The position numbers were made by a program, and so were the translations under genes. 64,000 bases of DNA, from the NCBI GenBank assembly GCA_027028505.1, contig JALVJE010000153.1:731-64730 (forward strand), read 5' to 3'. The notes beneath the pieces were generated by a model that was not told where the DNA came from, made no database searches, and saw nothing but the letters and a program-made list of their open reading frames with translations. The number at the start of each line of letters is the position of its first letter. The stretch's first letter is position 1. This document shows, piece after piece, positions 9-61,117 of this stretch. The DNA comes from Bacteroidales bacterium (GTDB lineage Bacteria; Bacteroidota; Bacteroidia; Bacteroidales; VadinHA17).

Positions 9-64
9 GACCTTCGCCATTCGCCATTCGCCGTTCATCCTTCCTTTTGCCTTCTGCCTTTCTT
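9..64. repeat. Heptanucleotide tandem array (8 in-phase units)
   Basis: GACCTTC GCCATTC GCCATTC GCCGTTC ATCCTTC CTTTTGC CTTCTGC CTTTCTT. Confidence 0.9.
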
Positions 65-66
65 CG

Positions 67-102
67 TCCGCCGAAGTCCCGGTACACCGGCACGAAGGCG
101 GA
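67..102. repeat. Conserved hairpin with symmetric GAA/GAA internal loop (copy 1)
   Basis: TCCGCC-GAA-GT.CCGG-taca-CCGG.AC-GAA-GGCGGA. A second copy lies at 3801-3832. Confidence 0.8.
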
Positions 103-103
103 T

Positions 104-152
104 GCCTTTTGCCTTTTTACTTTTGCCTTTTGCCTTATTACTTCTGCCTTCT
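104..152. repeat. Heptanucleotide tandem array (7 units, GCCTTTT type) running into the GRE stop codon
   Basis: GCC-initiated units are in phase at 104, 111, 118, 125, 132, 139 and 146. The last unit overlaps the stop at 151-153. Confidence 0.85.
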
Positions 153-2514
153 AAATACTCTCATGCTCCGTCCTTCTGATGATCTCGTTCTGCAGATCGG
201 TGCCCAGATCGTTGAAGTAATCACTGTACCCTGCCACGCGCACGATCAGGTCCTGGTATTTCTCGGGATGTTTCTGCGCATCGCGGAGGGTCTCGGCCCG
301 CACCACATTGAACTGGATATGATGCCCGTCCATCCTGAAATAGGACCGTATCAGAGCTGTCAGTTTCTTTTTGGCATCCCTGTCTTTGAAGAAATCCGGG
401 GAGAATTTCTGGTTCAGCAGGGTTCCTCCCGTCCGCAGGTGATCGATCTTGGCCACGGAGTTGATGACCGCCGTGGGCCCTTTCCTGTCGGCGCCCTGCA
501 CAGGTGAGATCCCTTCGGAGAGAGGCTCGCCGGCCTTACGTCCGTCAGGCATGGCGCCGATCACCGAGCCGAAATAGACATGGCTGGTAGTAGGCAGCAG
601 GTTGATGCGGAAGGTACCGCCGCGGCTGGTGGGTTTGCCGTCCACGGCCTCAAAGAACATCTCAAACACTTCCTGCGCCAGCACATCGGCATAGTCATCG
701 TCATTGCCGAATTTGTGGGTAAGATAGATCAGCTTGTGACGCAGCTCATCATAACCTTCAAAATTCTTCTCCAGGGCCTTCAGCATGCCGTCCATGGTAA
801 CATCTTTCTGCTCAAAGACATGCTCTTTCAGGGAAGCCAGGTTGTCGGTAATGCTGCCCAGCCCTACGCCCTGGATGTAGCTGGTATTATATCGGGCGCC
901 GCCGGCGTTGTAGTCGCGGCCGTTGGCGATGCAGTCGTCGATGAACAGCGACAGGAAGGGCGCTGGCAGGTACTGCGCATTGATGCGCTCGATGATGTTG
1001 TTGCCCCGTATCTTGATGTCCAGGAAATAGTTTAGCTGTTTGCGGTAGGCTCCCATCAGATCGTCAAACGAGCGGAACGTCCGCGGGTCGCCTGTGGCCA
1101 GACCTATCTTCCTGCCCGTGCGGGGATCGGTGCCGTTACGGAGGGTCACCTCCAACACCTTGTTGAGATTAAAATAGCCTGTCAGGATATAGGCTTCGGT
1201 GCCAAAAGCGCCTGACTCAACACATCCGCTGGCACCGCCTTTCCGTGCATCCACGATGTCCTTGCCCTGGCGCACCAGCTCGGCGATGATGGCATCGGTG
1301 TTGAAGACCGACGGCTGCCCGAAGCCGGTCTTGATGATATCCAGGGTGCGGAGGATAAAACGGTCGGGGTTCTTGCGGCTCACCTGGATCATCGACGAAG
1401 GCTGCAGGATGCGCATCTCTTCGATGACGTCCAGGATCAGGTAAGTCAGTTCGTTGACGGCATCCTTGCCGTCGGGGGTCACGCCCCCCAGGTTGATCAG
1501 GGCAAAGTCGGTGTAGGTATTGCTCTCCTGTGCCGTCACGCCGATCTTGGGCGGCGAGGGGTGGTTATTGAACTTCACCCAGAAAGCCTGCAGCAGCTCG
1601 CGGGCCCGCTCTTCGGTGAGGGTCCCCTCCTCCAGTCCCTGACGGAAGAAAGGCAGCAGCTGCTGGTCGAGACGGCCGGGGTTAAAGGAGTCCCAGGGGT
1701 TGAGCTCCGACACCACACCCAGGTGCACGAACCAATAGTACTGCAGCGCTTCGTGGAAGGTACGCGGAGCGCGGGCCGGCACCCACCGGCAGACGGCCTC
1801 CATCTCCTGCAACTCGCGGCGCCGCCGGGGATCTTTCTCTTTTTTCGCCTCTACATGCAACAGGTCGGCATAGCGGGCGGCAAAGCGCATCACCGCGCCG
1901 GCGGCGAGGCTCATGGCCGTCAGCTCCTCGCGTTTATCGTAGGCCTCCGGATCGTTGGCAAAGTCAAGCGCCCGGATGTGGCGGCGTATCTCGCGCTGCA
2001 GGTCAAGCAGACCCAGGCGGTAGATCTTGTCCCCCAGAACGGTGTGGCCGGGGGCGCGCTGCTCCTGGAACTCGGTGAAGACGCCGGCGCGGTATGCCTC
2101 CAGCCAGGGCTTCTCCATCGCCGCCATGATGCGGTCGCGGTTGGTGCGGCCTTTCCAGTACGGGATGATCTCCTCGCGGTATACACGCCGCACCTCATCA
2201 TCCACTTTGAAAGAGACCTTGGGACGGGTATCCAGGATCTCCAGGTCCTTCAGCGAGTGCAGGGTGATCTCGGGATAGGTGGGCGTGGCCTTGGGTGCCG
2301 GCCCGCGCTCCCCGACGATCAGCTCTCCCTCGCCCAGCCAGAGATGCTTATGACGCAGGAAATGATCCAGCGCCAAAGCCCGCTGCACCGGGACCGACCT
2401 GCCCCGGGCCCGGGGACTCTTGTAAAACTCCGTGATGAGCACCGCCCGCTCGGCCGAAATGCGGTTGACCGCCTGCAGGCTCTGCTCTCTCAGTTTTTCT
2501 ATTCTTTCAGTCAT
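151..2514 (-). CDS. Glycyl radical enzyme, PFL2/glycerol-dehydratase (1,2-eliminase) class; possibly trans-4-hydroxy-L-proline dehydratase-like
   Basis: 787-aa ORF. C-terminal glycyl-radical fingerprint RVAGYSDYF. Active-site loop GGASGCVESG has a single Cys plus Glu, not the PFL Cys-Cys pair. An activase gene lies directly upstream on the same strand. Confidence 0.93.
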   Translation of the reverse strand: MTERIEKLREQSLQAVNRISAERAVLITEFYKSPRARGRSVPVQRALALDHFLRHKHLWLGEGELIVGERGPAPKATPTYPEITLHSLKDLEILDTRPKVSFKVDDEVRRVYREEIIPYWKGRTNRDRIMAAMEKPWLEAYRAGVFTEFQEQRAPGHTVLGDKIYRLGLLDLQREIRRHIRALDFANDPEAYDKREELTAMSLAAGAVMRFAARYADLLHVEAKKEKDPRRRRELQEMEAVCRWVPARAPRTFHEALQYYWFVHLGVVSELNPWDSFNPGRLDQQLLPFFRQGLEEGTLTEERARELLQAFWVKFNNHPSPPKIGVTAQESNTYTDFALINLGGVTPDGKDAVNELTYLILDVIEEMRILQPSSMIQVSRKNPDRFILRTLDIIKTGFGQPSVFNTDAIIAELVRQGKDIVDARKGGASGCVESGAFGTEAYILTGYFNLNKVLEVTLRNGTDPRTGRKIGLATGDPRTFRSFDDLMGAYRKQLNYFLDIKIRGNNIIERINAQYLPAPFLSLFIDDCIANGRDYNAGGARYNTSYIQGVGLGSITDNLASLKEHVFEQKDVTMDGMLKALEKNFEGYDELRHKLIYLTHKFGNDDDYADVLAQEVFEMFFEAVDGKPTSRGGTFRINLLPTTSHVYFGSVIGAMPDGRKAGEPLSEGISPVQGADRKGPTAVINSVAKIDHLRTGGTLLNQKFSPDFFKDRDAKKKLTALIRSYFRMDGHHIQFNVVRAETLRDAQKHPEKYQDLIVRVAGYSDYFNDLGTDLQNEIIRRTEHESI

Positions 2515-2593: not shown

Positions 2594-3391
2594 TTATCCT
2601 CCAATCTTAACCCTGAATCCGGCTTTCTCATACCTTACCTTCAGTTTTTCCATCTCCTTCTCTCCCGGCTCGGGCACACCGGCCATGCGGTATTCCATCC
2701 CGAATTTCTCATACTTGTGAGCTGCCAGAGCATGGTAAGGCAGCAGATCGACCTCTTTCACGGCCCCGTTCAGCCCTTTTAGGAAACGCAGCGTTTTCTC
2801 CGTATTTTCCTCCCCGTCGTTGATGCCGGGGATCACGGGGATACGGATATACAGGTCTTTCCCCTCTGCCGCCAGGAAGGTTAGGTTCTCCAGGATCTGC
2901 CGGTTGGAGACACCGGTGTATTTCAGATGCTCCGCCTCGTCCATGTGTTTCACGTCATACAGGAAGAGGTCCGTCAGCTCCAGGATCTTCCGCAGGTTCT
3001 TCCTGGAGGTGTGCCCGGTAGTATCCACCGCCGTGTGGTAGCCTTCGCGCTTGCATGCCAGCAGCAGGTCTTCCAGAAAATCCCCCTGCCAGAGGGGTTC
3101 GCCTCCGGAGAGTGTTACCCCGCCGTCCGACTCCTCCATGAAAACACGCTCCCGGTTGATCTCCCGCATCAGCTCTCCGACGGTCATCCACCGGCCTACC
3201 GTTTCGCGGACGGGAAAGTCTTTCCCCTCCATCTTCTGCACCGTGATCACCTCTTCCGGCTCCTTCCGGATCCCCTCGGGGTTGTGGCACCACCAGCAGG
3301 AGAGCGGACAGCCTTTAAAAAAGACCGTCGTCCGGATGCCCGGACCGTCATGCACCGCATATCGCTTAATATCGAAGATTAAACCTTTCAT
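2594..3391 (-). CDS. Glycyl-radical enzyme activating protein (radical SAM)
   Basis: Radical-SAM motif CPLSCWWCHNPE (CX3CX2C) near the N-terminus. N-terminal MKGLIFDIKRYAVHDGPGIRT is typical of GRE activases. I moved the start to the internal Met at 3391 (265 aa); the track ORF extends to 3598 through low-complexity sequence. Confidence 0.88.
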   Translation of the reverse strand: MKGLIFDIKRYAVHDGPGIRTTVFFKGCPLSCWWCHNPEGIRKEPEEVITVQKMEGKDFPVRETVGRWMTVGELMREINRERVFMEESDGGVTLSGGEPLWQGDFLEDLLLACKREGYHTAVDTTGHTSRKNLRKILELTDLFLYDVKHMDEAEHLKYTGVSNRQILENLTFLAAEGKDLYIRIPVIPGINDGEENTEKTLRFLKGLNGAVKEVDLLPYHALAAHKYEKFGMEYRMAGVPEPGEKEMEKLKVRYEKAGFRVKIGG

Positions 3392-3666
3392 CGAAAAAGG
3401 AAATGGAAAAAAACAAAAAAAATGTGGAGAAAAGAGGGACAGGCACACCGGCCGGACAGGAGGGATCCCTAGTAGATCCAGCACTCGAAGAGATGGTGCA
3501 CGAACAGTTTCTTGTATTTTTTGATCGCAGGCATAGAAACTCCTTTGTTGCTGCAAGTTAGGAAAAAGCCCGGAAAAAACAAAAAGAAAGATCACCAAGT
3601 GGATATGTGCAGATATCAGGAATTATGCTCAGACATATTTACACATGGGATAAAAGAAATCAGATA

Positions 3667-3866
3667 GAAATTAGCTCACTGCATTGCCCGCCGAAGGCTT
3701 GCCGGAGGCTGGACGTTCGCGAAATTAGCCCCGACTGCGTCGGGTCGAAATTTAGTAGAAATTAGTTCGCTAACGCGAACGAAATTTACTCGCTGCCTTG
3801 TCCGCCGAAGTTCCCATAAGGACGAAGGCGGAACGCTCGTGAAATTAGCGCCTGCGGCGCGTCATT
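3667..3866. repeat. Array of six GAAATT(A/T)(G/A) units, each followed by a different GC-rich hairpin
   Basis: Units start at 3667, 3721, 3747, 3758, 3781 and 3841. Hairpins include CCCGAC-tgc-GTCGGG, GTTCGC-taa-GCGAAC and GCGCC-tgc-GGCGC. The two long units (3667, 3781) are ~55-60 nt and homologous. Confidence 0.85.
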
Positions 3867-3920
3867 CAAAGATCATCAACTTATCGGTGGTTTCTGAATA
3901 GCCGAAAGCGTATCAAAGGA

Positions 3921-4021
3921 CTCATCGCTCATAGCTCATCGCTAACTTTTCCCACTCTTCAGACTTTTTAGACTTTTTGACTTTTTGACTTTTGACCTTC
4001 GAGCATCGACATTCGACCTTC
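3921..4021. repeat. Short-period (7-9 nt) tandem arrays ending on the Omp85-like stop codon
   Basis: CTCATCG CTCATAG CTCATCG at 3921-3941. Then GACTTTTTA GACTTTTT GACTTTTT GACTTTT GACCTTC GAGCATC GACATTC GACCTTC at 3962-4021. Confidence 0.88.
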
Positions 4022-5210
4022 AGAACGCTTCCCCGAACCCCAGGAACACCGTATGTCCTCCTTTGGAGAAGCCTATGTCCATGCGCAGCACCGAGCTGGT
4101 AGCCTTGTCCATCAGGATCCGCAGGCCGCCGCCCCCGGCATAATGAAAGCCGTTGCCTTTAAAGTCCGGCAGGTGGGGTTGCACCTGCCCCATTCCTCCG
4201 AATACAGCCCCCCCCACAATCCAGAAAATCGGGAACCGCATCTCCAGCTGCGCCAGAGCCAGGGATTTGTCACGGAAACGCCCCCGGTAGATCCCCCGCA
4301 TCCGGGACTTCCCCCCGACCTGCGCCAGCGACTGCACCGGCACCTCTCCCATCCGTATCTCGGAATAGAGCTGACCGGCAAAGGTCAATTGTTTGAACAG
4401 GGTAAAATATTTTCGCAGATCAACGGTAATATTTCCATAATCGAATTTACTCCCGAAGATATGACTGTACAGATCATAAGAGAGATAAATGTACGATCCC
4501 TTTGTCGCCTGCAGGCGGTTGTTGCGGCCTTCGCGGAAATATTTGATCCCAAACCCCGACTGGATCCCCTCATTCCCCTCCAGGTCAAGATCGGGGAATG
4601 TATCCTTCTGCTCGACATGCATAAAATTGTTAAACGTATAGCGAAATCCTATATAATTGACCGTAACGATATTGTAATTAAAGCCGGGTTTGAGGAGCAG
4701 GTTTTTAAAATCTGTGAGCACGGCATTGGTTTCCGGCGTATTATTTCCCACCCCGTAATAGAGCATGGGAAAATCCCGGAAAGTAAACTCAAAGACCGTA
4801 TTGAAACGGTTGGGACCGAACATCAGGTCCCCTTTCAGTTTGATCTCATATTGCTTGTTGAGGGTATAAAAACCGTAAAGAGAAACACTGGAGAGTTGCA
4901 TCAGGGAATCCGGCAGATGCTTGTTATGGAACTTGAAAGCATTGTATTTGATAATACCGAAAGTGAGATTTGTCTCGGTGGAATATCCCAGATATGGGAC
5001 CGGCATGTATTTGAACAGTTTGCCGAACAGGCTCTCGGCCTCTTTGGCATACACCTCTTCCGGCAGTGTATCATGCCTCATCAGAGAGTCTGCAGAACTA
5101 CCTGTGGGACCATACAGGAACGAGGTGTCAGGATTTTCATAAAATGACGCAGCCCTTAGCCCCTGAACACAAAAGACCAGTATAAGTATAAGAATCCCCC
5201 GCTTGATCAT
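4020..5210 (-). CDS. Omp85/BamA-family outer-membrane beta-barrel protein (bacterial surface antigen domain only)
   Basis: Signal peptide MIKRGILILILVFCVQGLRA. Alternating beta-strand pattern, an RGY/RGI motif, and a C-terminal aromatic residue (GFGEAF). Confidence 0.78.
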   Translation of the reverse strand: MIKRGILILILVFCVQGLRAASFYENPDTSFLYGPTGSSADSLMRHDTLPEEVYAKEAESLFGKLFKYMPVPYLGYSTETNLTFGIIKYNAFKFHNKHLPDSLMQLSSVSLYGFYTLNKQYEIKLKGDLMFGPNRFNTVFEFTFRDFPMLYYGVGNNTPETNAVLTDFKNLLLKPGFNYNIVTVNYIGFRYTFNNFMHVEQKDTFPDLDLEGNEGIQSGFGIKYFREGRNNRLQATKGSYIYLSYDLYSHIFGSKFDYGNITVDLRKYFTLFKQLTFAGQLYSEIRMGEVPVQSLAQVGGKSRMRGIYRGRFRDKSLALAQLEMRFPIFWIVGGAVFGGMGQVQPHLPDFKGNGFHYAGGGGLRILMDKATSSVLRMDIGFSKGGHTVFLGFGEAF

Positions 5211-7577: not shown

Positions 7578-7629
7578 AATACCCGGATAAAACGAATAAT
7601 ACGCCGGTTTTCAACTAACCAACAAAAAC

Positions 7630-7657
7630 TTGAAACATGGAACATGGAACCTGAAAC
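7630..7657. repeat. Heptanucleotide tandem array (4 units) abutting the pepD stop codon
   Basis: TTGAAAC ATGGAAC ATGGAAC CTGAAAC, followed directly by the stop (7658-7660). Confidence 0.85.
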
Positions 7658-10976: not shown

Positions 10977-10989
10977 AGGGTGGTTTTTA

Positions 10990-11112
10990 GTTCAGAGTTC
11001 AGAGTTCACAGTTCAAAGTTCACAGTTCAAAGTTCACAGTTCAAAGTTCACAGTTCAGAGTTCAAAGTTTAGAGTTCAAAGTTTAGAGTTCAAAGTTTAG
11101 AGTTCAAAGTTT
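10990..11112. repeat. Heptanucleotide tandem array (~17.5 units, GTTCANA / GTTTAGA)
   Basis: GTTCAGA x2, then (GTTCACA GTTCAAA) x3, GTTCACA, GTTCAGA, then (GTTCAAA GTTTAGA) x3, then GTTCAAA. It fills most of the nnr-lipoprotein spacer. Confidence 0.95.
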
Positions 11113-14480: not shown

Positions 14481-15968
14481 ATGAAAAACTTTTTTGTCTC
14501 TCTTCGTCCCGGAGGTCATGCTCTTTTGTTCGCTCTGATCTTGGTGATCCTTTTACCGGGCACCTCCTGTAAAAAGGAACCCGACCGTTCCCGTCCCAAT
14601 GTGGTCATTATTTTCATTGATGATCAGGGCTACGGGGACATAGGCCCCAACGGCGCCATTGATTACATCACCCCCAACATTGACAAGCTGGCAGCCGAGG
14701 GGATGCGTTTCACCAATTTCTATGCGGCACAGGCTGTTTGCAGCGCCTCCCGCGCCGGTCTGCTCACCGGATGTTACCCGAACAGGATCGGTATCAGCGG
14801 CGCCCTGATGCCCTGGGCAAAGATCGGCATCAGCGATCAGGAGATGACCATCGCCCAGCTGCTGAAACAGAAAGGTTATGCCACCGGCATGGTCGGCAAG
14901 TGGCACCTGGGCGACAAGAAACCTTTCCTGCCCCTGCAGCACGGCTTTGACGATTATCTGGGCCTGCCTTACTCCAATGACATGTGGCCGGTGGATTTTG
15001 ACGGAAAACCTATTCCAAAGGATTCCAAGTCCTGGAAAGCGAAATACCCGCCCCTGCCTATTATCGACGGCAACGAAAAAGTGGGCGAGATACGTACCCT
15101 CGACGACCAGGGCAAGCTCACTACCATGTACACCGAACGGGCACTAAAATTCATTGATGAACACCACAACGAGCCTTTCTTTTTATATATGGCCCATTCG
15201 ATGGTACATGTACCCCTTGGCGTTTCTGACAAGTTCAAGGGAAAAAGCAAGCAGGGCATGTTCGGGGATGTGATGATGGAAGTGGACTGGTCAGTTGGAG
15301 AGGTAATGAAAGCCCTCGACAAATACGGTCTGACGGACAACACCCTGGTCATCTACACCAGCGACAATGGTCCGTGGCTCAATTTTGGTAACTGGGCCGG
15401 CTCCACCGGAGGCCTGCGCGAAGGTAAAGGCACCAGCTGGGAAGGGGGTCAGCGCGAACCCTGCATTATGCGGTGGCCGGGAGTCATCCCCGAAGGGACC
15501 ATCTGCAACAAGCTCTCCTCTACCATTGACATCCTGCCCACACTGGCTGAGATCACCGGCGCCAAACTGCCGGACCACATCATCGACGGGGTCAACATCC
15601 TGCCACTGATGAAAGGCGAGGAAAATGCCAATCCCAGAAATGTGTTTTATTACTATTATCAGCGCAACAGTCTCGAAGCTGTACGAAAAGGCCACTGGAA
15701 ACTGGTGCTCCCGCACAAATACCGCAGCTACGAAGGGGTGCCCCCCGGCCACGACGGCTTCCCGGGGCCATATGCCCATGATTCCACAGACCTGGCCCTT
15801 TACAACCTGCGCAGGGACCCGGGCGAGAGATATAACGTGATCGATCAGCACCCTGATGTGGTCAAGGACATTATGATAGAAGTGCAAAAAGCCAGGGAAG
15901 ACTTGGGCGATGATCTCACCGGCAACCCCGGAAAAAACAGACGCCCCCCGGGAAAACTGGAGGAATAG
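14481..15968 (+). CDS. Sulfatase (arylsulfatase A family)
   Basis: Signal peptide. Motif DDQGYGD plus the formylglycine site CSASRAGLLTG. Confidence 0.9.
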   Translation: MKNFFVSLRPGGHALLFALILVILLPGTSCKKEPDRSRPNVVIIFIDDQGYGDIGPNGAIDYITPNIDKLAAEGMRFTNFYAAQAVCSASRAGLLTGCYPNRIGISGALMPWAKIGISDQEMTIAQLLKQKGYATGMVGKWHLGDKKPFLPLQHGFDDYLGLPYSNDMWPVDFDGKPIPKDSKSWKAKYPPLPIIDGNEKVGEIRTLDDQGKLTTMYTERALKFIDEHHNEPFFLYMAHSMVHVPLGVSDKFKGKSKQGMFGDVMMEVDWSVGEVMKALDKYGLTDNTLVIYTSDNGPWLNFGNWAGSTGGLREGKGTSWEGGQREPCIMRWPGVIPEGTICNKLSSTIDILPTLAEITGAKLPDHIIDGVNILPLMKGEENANPRNVFYYYYQRNSLEAVRKGHWKLVLPHKYRSYEGVPPGHDGFPGPYAHDSTDLALYNLRRDPGERYNVIDQHPDVVKDIMIEVQKAREDLGDDLTGNPGKNRRPPGKLEE

Positions 15969-16427: not shown

Positions 16428-16461
16428 GAAGAAATACGATGACCGAAATGTGCTGCGCCTT

Positions 16462-16521
16462 GAACAAGGAACTGTGAACTACGAACTATGAACTATGAAC
16501 TATGAACTATGAACTATGAAC
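16462..16521. repeat. Heptanucleotide tandem array (8.5 units, GAACTAT; reverse complement of the GTTCA type)
   Basis: GAACAAG GAACTGT GAACTAC, then GAACTAT x5, then GAAC. It is followed immediately by the terminator. Confidence 0.95.
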
Positions 16522-16552
16522 AAAAAAAGGAGGTCCCCGACCTCCTTTTTTT
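16522..16552. terminator. Bidirectional intrinsic terminator
   Basis: An A7 run, then stem GGAGGTC / GACCTCC, then a T7 run. It sits between the convergent SiaC-like gene (+) and the tRNA (-). Confidence 0.8.
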
Positions 16553-16553
16553 G

Positions 16554-16627
16554 TAGCGAGAGAGGGACTTGAACCCTCGACCTCAGGATTATGAATCCTG
16601 CGCTCTAACCAGCTGAGCTACCTCGCC
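16554..16627 (-). tRNA. tRNA with CAT anticodon (elongator tRNA-Met, or tRNA-Ile2 if lysidine-modified)
   Basis: Reverse complement folds as a cloverleaf: GGCGAGG TA GCTC AGCTGGTT AGAGC G CAGGA TTCATAA TCCTG AGGTC GAGGG TTCAAGT CCCTC TCTCGCT A. No encoded CCA. The anticodon stem lacks the initiator GGG/CCC feature. Confidence 0.82.
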
Positions 16628-28925: not shown

Positions 28926-28945
28926 CGTGCTCACCAGAGATGTAT

Positions 28946-28982
28946 AAAAAAAGCTGTCCTGAACAGGGGCAGCTTTTTTTTT
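28946..28982 (+). terminator. Intrinsic terminator of dnaK
   Basis: Hairpin AGCTGTCCTG-AA-CAGGGGCAGCT followed by a T9 run. Confidence 0.8.
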
Positions 28983-29029
28983 ATGTAAATTTACAACCGT
29001 TAAGAACTACTATGCGTTCATAGGGTAAA

Positions 29030-37066: not shown

Positions 37067-37116
37067 GCTGCACGGAAACACCCTGCAACCTGCACCTAGC
37101 ACCCAGCACCCTCCCC
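37067..37116. repeat. Heptanucleotide tandem array (about 7 units, CNNGCAC type) between convergent xseB and aspA-fusion genes
   Basis: GCTGCAC GGAAACA CCCTGCAA CCTGCAC CTAGCAC CCAGCAC CCTCCCC. The run is not perfectly in phase, because CCCTGCAA has 8 nt. Confidence 0.8.
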
Positions 37117-43518: not shown

Positions 43519-43686
43519 CCAAAATCAGCAATAGAAAATCGCAAGCGCTTTCTATTGGTGATCGATTAAGGACTTCATCGGTTTTGGCTATTCACCAAAA
43601 CCGTGAAATCCTAGATCGGGGTTAATCCCAGCTAACGCATTAGTTCAGCTAATTCTTAGCTTCCTAATGCGTAATCTGGGATTAAC
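43519..43686. repeat. Three consecutive perfect hairpins / dispersed intergenic repeat modules (left flank of the TonB-receptor cassette)
   Basis: H1 is CAATAGAAA/TTTCTATTG (43529-43557). H2 is CGGTTTTG/CAAAACCG (43579-43603). H3 is a 66-nt hairpin with three stem segments, GTTAATCCCAG, ACGCATTAG and AGCTAA (43621-43686). Confidence 0.85.
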
Positions 43687-43816
43687 TTACTTTTTTCTTA
43701 CACAAACCTACTCTTTTTTGTTGTAAAGATACAAAGGAAGCATGAAAAAACCCAAAAAGCATTCTTCTCAATAGCCAGTCTGGCTTTTTTCAGGTCAGAT
43801 AGGTCAAGACCTTTCT

Positions 43817-46533: not shown

Positions 46534-46622
46534 TGGAGGGGACAGGTCAAACTCCCTGCGCCGGCATTACCCGGTTCAGGTTCAAAGGGTTTGATCTCAG
46601 CCTGAAAGTAAGGCACCCCTGT
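46534..46622 (-). promoter_or_regulatory. TPP (thiamine pyrophosphate, THI-box) riboswitch
   Basis: The minus strand reads CAGGGGTGCC..GGCTGAGATCAAACCCTTTGAACCTGAACCGGGTAATGCCGGCGCAGGGAG..CCCCTCC. This matches the conserved GGGGUGC / CUGAGA / ACCCUUUGAACCUGAUCUGGAUAAUGCCAGCGUAGGGA core. It ends ~25 nt before the receptor ATG. Confidence 0.88.
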
Positions 46623-46706
46623 AATAACTCATACAAAAATAAGAAGATTTTACAAATAAACCTACAAAATTGATCCCGGATTATGTTTTAAGAAGGTAAA
46701 AAAAAC

Positions 46707-46968: not shown

Positions 46969-47331
46969 TCAGTCTTTTTCCACCTTCAGCACTTCCTGGA
47001 TGGCCTTGTAAAAGGTCTCTTTCGGGATAGCACCTACAGCCATCTGCGGAGGCTCATCCTTGGGACAGAATAGCAGCGAAGGAATGCTCCGGATGCCGAA
47101 AACGGCAGCCAGCTCCTGCTGATCTTCTGTATCCACCTTGTAAAAATTCACCTTGCCGTCATATTCCTCCGTCAACTCGTCAATGATAGGAGCTATGATC
47201 TTACAAGGCTGACACCAGTCAGCATAAAAATCAATGATGCAGGGCTTGTCCCCTTCAAATTTCCATTCCTGGTTCTTCGTGTAATCAAACACCTTCTGCT
47301 TGAAGGTATCCACAGTTAAAAATTCTGCCAT
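46969..47331 (-). CDS. Thioredoxin
   Basis: 120 aa. WCQPCK active site in a canonical thioredoxin context. Confidence 0.9.
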   Translation of the reverse strand: MAEFLTVDTFKQKVFDYTKNQEWKFEGDKPCIIDFYADWCQPCKIIAPIIDELTEEYDGKVNFYKVDTEDQQELAAVFGIRSIPSLLFCPKDEPPQMAVGAIPKETFYKAIQEVLKVEKD

Positions 47332-52687: not shown

Positions 52688-52764
52688 CTTGTTATTTACT
52701 ATTTTTCATATGTTTAAATATACTTTCATATTTCTAACACCTTTCCCTATTTACGCTCTGTGAA

Positions 52765-52967
52765 GTTCTCGGTTCACGGTTCATAGTTCACAGTTCATAG
52801 TTCATAGTTCACAGTTCATAGTTCACGGTTCATAGTTCACGGTTCATAGTTCACGGTTCATAGTTCACGGTTCATAGTTCACGGTTCATAGTTCACAGTT
52901 CACAGTTCATAGTTCACAGTTCATAGTTCACAGTTCATAGTTCACGGTTCATAGTTCACGGTTCATC
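52765..52967. repeat. Heptanucleotide tandem array, 29 phase-perfect units (GTTCATA / GTTCAC[AG])
   Basis: 203 nt with every unit starting GTTC. There is a 14-nt higher-order alternation. It ends 5 nt from the acyltransferase stop, and the periodicity continues as GATCATC ATTCATC into the coding end. Confidence 0.97.
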
Positions 52968-60765: not shown

Positions 60766-60840
60766 TGGGCGATACTGGATTCGAACCAGTGACCTCCTGC
60801 TTGTAAGGCAGGCGCTCTGAACCAACTGAGCTAATCGCCC
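60766..60840 (-). tRNA. tRNA-Val (TAC anticodon)
   Basis: Reverse complement GGGCGAT TA GCTC AGTTGGTTC AGAGC G CCTGC CTTACAA GCAGG AGGTC ACTGG TTCGAAT CCAGT ATCGCCC A. The acceptor stem is perfect. Confidence 0.95.
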
Positions 60841-61025: not shown

Positions 61026-61117
61026 ATTACACATTAAGAAGCTAAGTATTAGCGGAACTAATCCATTAACGGGGGTTAACTTAGCGTAGCGATCTCATGA
61101 GCGCAGCGAATAACCCC
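61026..61117. repeat. Degenerate inverted copy of hairpin module H3, plus an adjacent GGGGTTA/TAACCCC hairpin
   Basis: The reverse complement of 61026-61070 aligns with 43632-43678 at roughly 80% identity by eye (AATGGATTAGTTCCGCTAATACTTAGCTTCTTAATGTGTAAT versus AACGCATTAGTTCAGCTAATTCTTAGCTTCCTAATGCGTAAT). Confidence 0.7.

Follow-up and report, generated by a model that had tools for sequence, protein, structure and literature searches.

The stretch analyzed here, hereafter the window, comprises 64,000 nucleotides (nt) of contig JALVJE010000153.1 (positions 731 to 64,730, forward strand) in the assembly GCA_027028505.1 of an uncultured Bacteroidales bacterium. We studied an array of short direct repeats located in the gap between the gene of an Omp85-like protein and the operon of a glycyl radical enzyme. 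All the neighbouring genes are on the minus strand. A Pfam scan of the eight open reading frames (ORFs) within 9 kb recognised only the glycyl radical enzyme, its activase, the Omp85-like protein, a DPP-IV and an M20 peptidase, and NCBIfam assigned the enzyme to trans-4-hydroxy-L-proline dehydratase HypD (1219 bits for a cutoff of 1100). The array, a block of about 210 nt (3656-3866), is made of seven copies of an 8-nt word interleaved with small GC hairpins (Table 1). Some 100-310 nt separate it from the promoter-like motif of the hypD operon, to which it is upstream, and with respect to the Omp85-like gene it lies in the 3' region; on the coding (minus) strand the word reads YWAATTTC and is placed after each hairpin. 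An earlier note on this DNA, made from the sequence alone, had described the block without this gene orientation. For comparison we used four close lineages with similar neighbouring genes, recovered within the 90% activase cluster: L006 (GCA_054005175.1), L128 (GCA_027077585.1) and the metagenome contigs L129 and L130. All relatives are metagenome assemblies.

Six copies of the word match GAAATTWR exactly on the plus strand, where no further match occurs in the 64 kb; the sole match outside the array lies on the other strand, at 47256. Shuffled windows contained 11.2 +/- 3.5 matches per window over both strands, from which we deduced a Poisson expectation of about 0.02-0.04 per 200 nt, so that six words in 200 nt are far above chance. 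With the degenerate seventh word included, the start-to-start spacings are 11, 54, 26, 11, 23 and 60 nt. On the plus strand the elements are ordered as follows: GAAATCAG-ata-GAAATTAG-unit 1 (46 nt)-GAAATTAG-C-hairpin 2-tc-GAAATTTA-gta-GAAATTAG-hairpin 4-GAAATTTA-unit 5 (52 nt)-GAAATTAG-hairpin 6. Tandem Repeats Finder makes no call for 3656-3866 as an array because the words are not head-to-tail, and reports only a period-11 repeat at 3690-3710, inside unit 1.

Three perfect GC hairpins are thus interspersed in 215 nt, after words 2, 4 and 6, with folding energies of -8.5 to -9.8 kcal/mol each and no second copy in the window. Our counting rule, which scores 3730-3744 twice, gave four hairpins for a dinucleotide-shuffle mean of 0.58, a count reached in 12 of 2000 shuffles. 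Read by eye, hairpins 2 and 6 have in common a GAC prefix, the tgc loop and the next word, and are two paired stem changes apart; hairpin 6 also forms the outer limit of the segment in good alignment with L006. Homology links units 1 and 5 (83% over 30 nt, 76% over 37 nt), and the repeat finder paired 3656-3680 with 3747-3771 (76%), 3667-3696 with 3781-3810 and 3703-3739 with 3823-3859, all at 76-83%. This shows the block to be essentially two tandem copies of a super-unit of about 91-120 nt, not six equal units.

Table 1. Coordinates of the array, of its neighbours and of related features in the window and in other contigs
Feature	Contig	Position	Strand	Remarks
Degenerate seventh word GAAATCAG	window	3656-3663	+	'double word' with word 1, 11-nt spacing
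Word 1 GAAATTAG (coding strand: CTAATTTC)	window	3667-3674	+	exact word match
Unit 1 body, decayed two-tier palindromic module (CCGCCGAAG...GGAGGC)	window	3675-3720		no stable hairpin left
Word 2 GAAATTAG	window	3721-3728	+	exact word match
Hairpin 2, CCCGAC-tgc-GTCGGG, 6 bp	window	3730-3744		same in L006, missing from L128
Word 3 GAAATTTA	window	3747-3754	+	first half of second double word; 2 substitutions in L006
Word 4 GAAATTAG	window	3758-3765	+	exact word match
Hairpin 4, GTTCGC-taac-GCGAAC, 6 bp	window	3765-3780		4-nt loop; starts at last G of word 4
Word 5 GAAATTTA	window	3781-3788	+	exact word match
Module copy inside unit 5, TCCGCC-GAAG-inner stem-CGAA-GGCGGA (plus strand)	window	3801-3832		
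Word 6 GAAATTAG	window	3841-3848	+	exact word match
Hairpin 6, GCGCC-tgc-GGCGC, 5 bp	window	3848-3860		paralogue of hairpin 2; starts at last G of word 6
Spacer holding palindrome GATATCTGCACATATC	window	3584-3655	-	present or absent jointly with the array
Omp85-like protein	window	5210-4020	-	Pfam scan
Promoter-like motif TTTG-N19-TAACTTGC	window	3553-3583	-	sequence reading; kept in all relatives with or without the array
Small ORF MPAIKKYKKLFVHHLFECWIY*, 21 codons, conserved	window	3534-3469	-	upstream of HypD activase
Glycyl-radical activase (HypD activase)	window	3391-2594	-	Pfam scan
PFL-like glycyl radical enzyme, HypD	window	2514-151	-	Pfam scan and NCBIfam
Module copy outside the array	window	67-102		just 3' of hypD stop codon; -21 kcal/mol, z = -2.1
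Module copy	L128	214-250		
Module copy	L129	93-125		
Module copy	L006	14116-14145		
Module copy	L004	~12139		
Module copy	L003	~15619-15644		
Small ORF	L003	11343-11408		
Small ORF	L004	11172-11240		
Small ORF	L006	10564-10629		
Small ORF	L007	2142-2210		
Small ORF	L128	910-975		
Small ORF	L129	206-271		
Small ORF	L130	150-215		
Small ORF	L134	2846-2911		
Heptamer/octamer repeat arrays	window	10989-11111, 16461-16521, 52764-52965, 3962-3993, 2518-2592, 13-36, 103-150, 7626-7657, 37079-37111		
Word array	L057 (JGI Ga0055461_10009068, Patescibacteria contig)	600-765		at least 10 NAATTTC words with GC-rich fillers

In units 1 and 5 we recognise copies of a two-tier palindromic module of about 40 nt. 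Aligning its copies gave the coding-strand consensus TCCGCC-TTCG-TCCCGG..CCGGGA-CTTCG-GCGGA-CAAGGCA, which folds into a 6-bp outer stem, a 3x3 internal loop of conserved sequence and an inner stem, with energies of -17 to -21 kcal/mol. The window holds three copies, and every copy seen flanks the hypD operon, always downstream of a gene and in its sense orientation: those of L128 and L129 follow the Omp85-like gene, while the copy at 67-102 of the window and that of L006 follow hypD. Over their whole length, units 1 and 5 align with module copies that are free of the array (window 55-112, L128 205-262, L129 82-140 and L006 14100-14160). Unit 1 is full-length and stable in L128 (-26.8 kcal/mol). 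The orthologous modules located 3' of the Omp85-like gene read TCCGCC...GTCGGA in L128, with one mismatch, and CCCGAC...GTCGGG in L129, fully paired, and the stem of hairpin 2 (CCCGAC/GTCGGG) is identical to the outer stem of the latter. Given the stem that hairpin 2 shares with the module, and the flank, loop and next word that it shares with hairpin 6, hairpins 2, 4 and 6 are most simply regarded as shortened paralogues of one palindromic unit.

These positions bear out the six GAAATT(A/T)(G/A) repeats in 200 nt counted in the earlier note, to which the degenerate word is added. The note had also described perfect GC stems with 3-nt loops after units 2, 4 and 6; the three stems are there, and the loop of unit 4 has 4 nt (taac). 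Units 1 and 5, said to carry a common hairpin, are homologous as claimed (76-83%), but in unit 1 of the window this hairpin has decayed (z = +0.77), and it is intact only in L128. The existence of a class of elements with a constant header and a variable hairpin, having relatives in the window, is not supported: the word is restricted to one locus, units 1 and 5 represent a separate module also present outside the array, and hairpins 2 and 6 are paralogues. The vocabulary thought to be shared with 43631-43652 and 61026-61070 turned out to be at chance level, the 43600 bin having four 8-mers in common with the array, the same number as several unrelated bins. More generally, the array had k-mers in common with other parts of the window at or below expectation, the module copy (66-102) excepted. 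At 43620-43687, between two large minus-strand genes that are 646 nt apart, lies a near-perfect hairpin of three tiers (12 + 9 + 6 bp, separated by 3-nt internal loops); its energy is -37 kcal/mol with z = -6.5 on both strands, and its k-mer sharing with the array is at chance only.

Between very close relatives the block is gained, trimmed or lost. Exact copies of the proteins were found on one other contig only, with identical word spacing; this contig adds no independent information. L006 displays all seven words and unchanged hairpins 2, 4 and 6, but lacks 37 nt corresponding to the unit-5 module and its immediate flanks, and 11 nt in unit 1; over its 20 kb, the word is confined to the array, one stray copy apart. 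In L128 only word-word-unit 1-word is present, with a longer unit 1, and the L130 contig begins inside unit 1 and ends the array with a degenerate word, CCACTTAC. L129 has neither the array nor the adjacent spacer of 70-100 nt, with promoter, small ORF and activase intact. The more distant relatives share the gene order but have no array; these are L003, L004 and L007, in which the Omp85-like protein is 68-78% identical, and L134, in which the activase is 82% identical. L128 and L129 are mutual closest relatives (0.93 identity at activase four-fold sites), and loss of the array in L129 is therefore most parsimonious. The indel record is the striking feature: at least four independent unit-level deletions or a whole-block loss took place while adjacent synonymous sites changed by 3-7%. 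Two other members of the cluster did not enter the comparison: P0246 was rejected as an unrelated protein in a pig-gut ABC-transporter context, and P0242 is an internal fragment without upstream DNA. With the array complete, trimmed, reduced to one unit or absent among close relatives, a modular design is unsupported, and the 'variable hairpins' are best explained by duplication followed by internal deletion of palindromes.

The array is not unusually conserved with respect to the local synonymous baseline. Alignment of the window with L006 puts its identity at 95.7%, with 7 mismatches over 163 aligned nt and 48 gap columns; 3 of the 7 substitutions fall inside words. Purifying selection had at first been inferred by comparing this 96% with a gene-wide four-fold identity of 83% (0.72-0.83 in the different comparisons). 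This conclusion was withdrawn, because among the window, L006, L128 and L129 the first 66 activase codons, beside the gap, have 93-97% identity at four-fold sites, and the lineages are mosaic. At 5-7% local divergence, the binomial probability of the identity observed in the array is 0.04-0.2. Four-fold identity is blocky along the 798-nt activase gene; between L128 and L129 it amounts to 1.00, 0.83, 1.00 and 0.90 in the successive quarters. Such blocks among the window, L006, L128, L129 and L130 indicate frequent recombination among lineages, and whole-gene divergence is therefore a poor local neutral yardstick.

Other short repeats in the window behave similarly. Tandem Repeats Finder detected at least 12 intergenic direct-repeat arrays of heptamers or octamers, for instance AGTTCAC x29, AGTTCAA x18, TGAACTA x9 and GACTTTTT x4, most of which begin right 3' of stop codons or stop right 5' of start codons. 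In sequence and length they differ wholly between relatives that have about 90% identity in the flanking genes. They are of the same class as the TAACTGA repeats and related heptamers described in Beggiatoaceae, Cyanobacteria and a few Bacteroidetes, which are sporadic, absent from close relatives and of unknown function (MacGregor 2015, PMC4679880). The array shares with these heptamer or long simple sequence repeat (LSSR) arrays the short intergenic words oriented with the downstream gene, the sporadic occurrence and the absence from close relatives. However, their 5-11-nt units are head-to-tail, whereas the words of the array are 3 to 52 nt apart and separated by GC-rich palindromic filler; it is for this reason not a strict member of the class, although it shares its behaviour.

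While nearest to heptamer repeat arrays in behaviour, the array is nearest in form to the mosaics of repetitive extragenic palindromes (REPs) and bacterial interspersed mosaic elements (BIMEs), and it lacks defining features of both. As in the REP/BIME elements of Proteobacteria, short imperfect palindromes and short conserved linkers form an intergenic mosaic; these elements, too, often follow genes and differ between strains in the number of units, and roles in termination or in stabilising mRNA have been suggested for them. REPs, though, are high-copy, dispersed and built on one conserved palindrome, whereas the units of the array are confined to one locus: word-plus-hairpin units were found only here within the 64 kb and the 20 kb of the relative L006. 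Only the module is dispersed, and at low copy (three in 64 kb, around one operon). BIME palindromes alternate in orientation, while the units of the array are direct and their hairpins mutually different. For a REP one expects a palindrome of 20-40 nt, one per family; the module has 32-36 nt and is conserved, and hairpins 2, 4 and 6 have 13-16 nt and differ. REP palindromes carry a conserved GTAG or CGTC tag at one end (PMC3733652); the tag here is GAAATTWR, and GTAG occurs once (3752-3755), 9 nt from hairpin 4.

The likeness to CRISPR and integron attC sites is restricted to a superficial alternation of constant and variable parts. The repeat has 8 nt compared with 23-50 nt in CRISPR, the spacing is irregular (11-60 nt), and the eight ORFs scanned within 9 kb include neither cas nor intI genes. 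Sites of the attC type (55-140 nt, RYYYAAC/GTTRRRY) follow cassette ORFs, whereas the units here have 11-60 nt without ORFs between them, and no GTTRRRY core site was present on either strand of 3656-3866. As for a miniature inverted-repeat transposable element or an insertion sequence remnant, we found no long inverted repeat bounding the block, no other copy in the window and no match in plasmids, phages or viral contigs. The layout is thus non-random and neither CRISPR nor attC, as the earlier note had it, and no Rfam, plasmid or phage match was obtained.

Searching Rfam at gathering thresholds over the whole window gave no match relevant to the array, and at E values up to 10 over 3300-4100 the sole match was meaningless (10 bits, outside the array). 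No plasmid of PLSDB and no phage of INPHARED matched 3560-3880 in blastn searches in distant mode. A metagenome scan with a pattern of the three-word architecture returned at least 120 loci, nearly all AT-rich chance matches or unrelated tandem repeats and iterons, and among the matches listed only L057 resembles the array. There, the words are located between a terminator and a gene of the metallo-beta-lactamase (MBL) fold, upstream of this gene and in its sense, in an array that is itself tandem-duplicated (unit lengths 7, 10, 10, 14, 24, 22 and 7, 10, 14, 22, 7). L057 and the window array are collinear over about 100 nt with a local alignment score of 45; among the matches listed, the 120 other loci of the same pattern reached 33 at most, with a median of 23. 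They have in common 'GCGAACTAATTTC', the double word 'AATTTCTAYTAAATTTCG' and 'GCTAATTTCGCGAMCG'. The L057 array has no perfect hairpins, an Rfam search of it returned nothing relevant, and no array was found upstream of the homologous MBL-fold gene in L181-L186. In viral contigs, a scan with the 24-base shared motif gave 0 matches and a scan with the double word 45 matches, about chance level, without arrays. The likeness of L057 to the window array may reflect homology or a convergence of word arrays.

We give about an even chance to the following reading: the array is a locus-specific, unstable mosaic of two sorts of sequence that populate the intergenic DNA of this clade, namely a direct-repeat word and copies or remnants of the palindromic module. 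It would be a dispensable by-product of repeat and palindrome turnover rather than a novel type of genetic element. Directly observed are its anatomy, its restriction to one locus, the module copies elsewhere, the presence or absence of the block with unit-level indels, and the lack of excess conservation. As to the order of events, a unit made of a word and a palindrome would have been tandemly duplicated in the ancestor of a genus-level clade, yielding a super-unit of about 100 nt. Deletions within palindromes and between the 7-8-nt words, by slippage or a palindrome-deletion mechanism, would then have produced units of 11 to 60 nt, of which the short hairpins 2, 4 and 6 would be leftovers of longer palindromes. 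This reading is supported by the heptamer or octamer arrays of the window, at least 12, which turn over completely between the same relatives (61% identity in the adjacent word region), by the lack of an Rfam match and by the folding of the whole block, which is no better than that of shuffles (z = +0.26 on the minus strand and -1.5 on the plus strand). On this reading, the hypD operon depends on no sequence-specific job of the array. The sole activity that we consider likely, at the RNA level, is generic: on the Omp85-like transcript, a GC stem followed by UAAUUUC may be a weak terminator or a block to 3' exonucleases.

Several observations weigh against this interpretation. The array is far steadier than the simple-repeat region that abuts it (95.7% compared with 61%). 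The transition between the two, at 3866/3867, is sharp, and both genomes that carry hairpins 2, 4 and 6 have them perfectly paired and without any change. Compensated stem pairs, among paralogous as well as orthologous palindromes, suggest that pairing is maintained, by selection or by an arm-copying mechanism. A collinear array with the same words, as in L057, is not predicted by a purely local accident. Finally, as the relatives are metagenome assemblies, some indels could be assembly errors; the indel junctions have no flanking repeats long enough for collapse by the assembler.

A stack of weak intrinsic terminators or 3'-protecting hairpins, selected to stop read-through into the hypD promoter and to stabilise the Omp85-like mRNA, seems to us unlikely, in spite of features shared with Rho-independent terminators and 3' hairpins, namely the position at the 3' side of a gene and GC stem-loops with a U-rich heptamer after each. 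The orientation on the coding strand fits, with the word ((C)UAAUUUC) after every hairpin, no canonical terminator separates the Omp85-like stop codon from the hypD promoter, module copies are located just 3' of stop codons in sense orientation in several relatives, and stems show compensated changes. Hairpin 4 is the only one to pass a terminator-like scan, on the minus strand, but one site is no more than what shuffles give. The tract of U is interrupted and has a mere 4 U in 7 nt; after hairpins 2 and 6 it reads (GC)UAAUUUC, hence 4 U where a terminator requires at least 5 in 8. The stems are of 5-6 bp and merely -8.5 to -9.8 kcal/mol, whereas the canonical terminators of the window (stem and T-run at 16528-16560 and 28940-28985) have longer stems and A/T runs. 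Moreover, L129 has a single module, L003, L004, L007 and L134 have none of these units, and unit 1 has been left to decay. We regard as still less probable, and doubtful, an array of protein-binding sites upstream of the hypD promoter, in which the words would be half-sites recruiting a regulator or bending the DNA. Its location at about -100 to -310 from the promoter-like motif would suit this role, as would the two word pairs 11 nt apart (3656/3667 and 3747/3758), as in OmpR/PhoB-type or AraC-type sites, the 11-nt indel of unit 1 that keeps helical phase, and the palindrome GATAT-N6-ATATC of the accompanying spacer, conserved in four lineages. Yet the remaining spacings (23, 26, 54 and 60 nt; 23 or 43 nt in L006) are out of phase, 3 of 7 substitutions hit words, L128 has two or three words and L129 none with promoter and operon intact, and the flanking genes scanned include no evident regulator. 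The GC palindromes are all unlike each other and therefore offer no site for a single dimeric factor.

That the block encodes an independent small RNA acting as a protein sponge, whose single-stranded CUAAUUUC (or GAAAUUAG) between GC clamps would titrate an RNA-binding protein as in RsmZ/CsrB or CrcZ, is in our opinion very improbable. The layout, a short motif repeated in linkers between stable hairpins, is the expected one; S1, cold shock proteins (CSP) or CsrA-like proteins have been suggested to bind short intergenic direct repeats (PMC4679880), and L057 shows an array of similar words in an unrelated phylum. However, neither end has a terminator, and no conserved promoter-like motif lies upstream on either strand: a sigma-70 scan found none, and a Bacteroidetes -7/-33 scan picked up only the word itself (TAAATTTC) and one candidate, GATCTTTG at about 3874, rejected as it is not conserved in L006. 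The lack of an Rfam match, the overall folding at shuffle level and a unit number of 0 to 7 among close relatives are further objections. Slightly less far-fetched, though a long shot all the same, is the proposal that YWAATTTC arrays with GC fillers are a recurrent cross-phylum element, located upstream of promoters or in 3' untranslated regions, of which the window array and L057 would be examples; a U-rich or AT-rich word displayed between GC clamps would be a platform for RNA polymerase or for a widely conserved protein that binds single-stranded nucleic acids (CSP or S1-like). It would parallel the unexplained cross-phylum TAACTGA repeats. We give the least credit to a REP/BIME-like family mobilised by an HUH enzyme (RAYT or IS200-type), the word being the recognition or cleavage tag beside the hairpin. 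A short conserved tag beside a palindrome is indeed the REP design (PMC3733652), and the 40-nt module occurs at several intergenic sites. Against this, the word-plus-hairpin combination exists at one locus only, the hairpins beside the word are all different and without GTAG or CGTC tag, the units are in direct, not alternating, orientation, every module copy found surrounds the hypD operon, and no transposase-like gene was present among the flanking genes scanned.

The gap (3392-4019) was considered free of genes in the earlier note, which holds for ORFs of at least 60 aa, but a conserved ORF of 21 codons lies on the minus strand upstream of the HypD activase (Table 1). Its consensus is MPAIKKYKKLFV(H/R)HLFECW(I/M)(Y/F/C), with 21-22 codons, located 75-160 nt 5' of the activase start. 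Its amino acids are kept with synonymous changes at nine loci from different species, each preceded by a TTTG-N19-20-TA(A/T)CTTGC promoter-like motif, and it matched no NCBIfam family. In the window, the motif matches the Bacteroidetes -33/-7 promoter pattern, and judging from its position it would drive the small ORF, HypD activase and HypD. The small ORF may encode a leader peptide or a small protein belonging to the hydroxyproline dehydratase operon. A 52-aa plus-strand ORF (3607-3765) was rejected, being broken by the 11-nt and 37-nt indels in L006. The palindrome GATATCTGCACATATC (GATAT-N6-ATATC) is located at 3602-3617 on the minus strand, at a distance of about 20-35 nt on the upstream side of the -33 motif. 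It is kept in the window, L006, L128 and L130 and has gone together with the array in L129, and it could possibly be an operator or activator site. Elsewhere in the window, ordinary features include a thiamine pyrophosphate (TPP) riboswitch (71 bits) at 46536-46630 on the minus strand, 5' of an 801-aa minus-strand gene, and tRNA genes at 16554-16627 and 60766-60840.

As it stands, the array is of little importance, and the conserved 21-codon ORF before the HypD activase is probably the more useful lead from this gap. The array serves rather as a worked example of how a designed-looking layout can arise from tandem duplication of a palindrome-bearing unit and internal deletions, an origin exposed by very close relatives calibrated by local synonymous divergence. 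If it were an insulating terminator stack or a cross-phylum array bound by a conserved protein, the short and still unexplained repeats between genes in Bacteroidetes, Cyanobacteria and Beggiatoaceae would gain in it a tractable model. With its heptamer arrays, its dispersed two-tier palindrome and its mosaic recombination, the intergenic DNA of this uncultured Bacteroidales clade is unusually dynamic.

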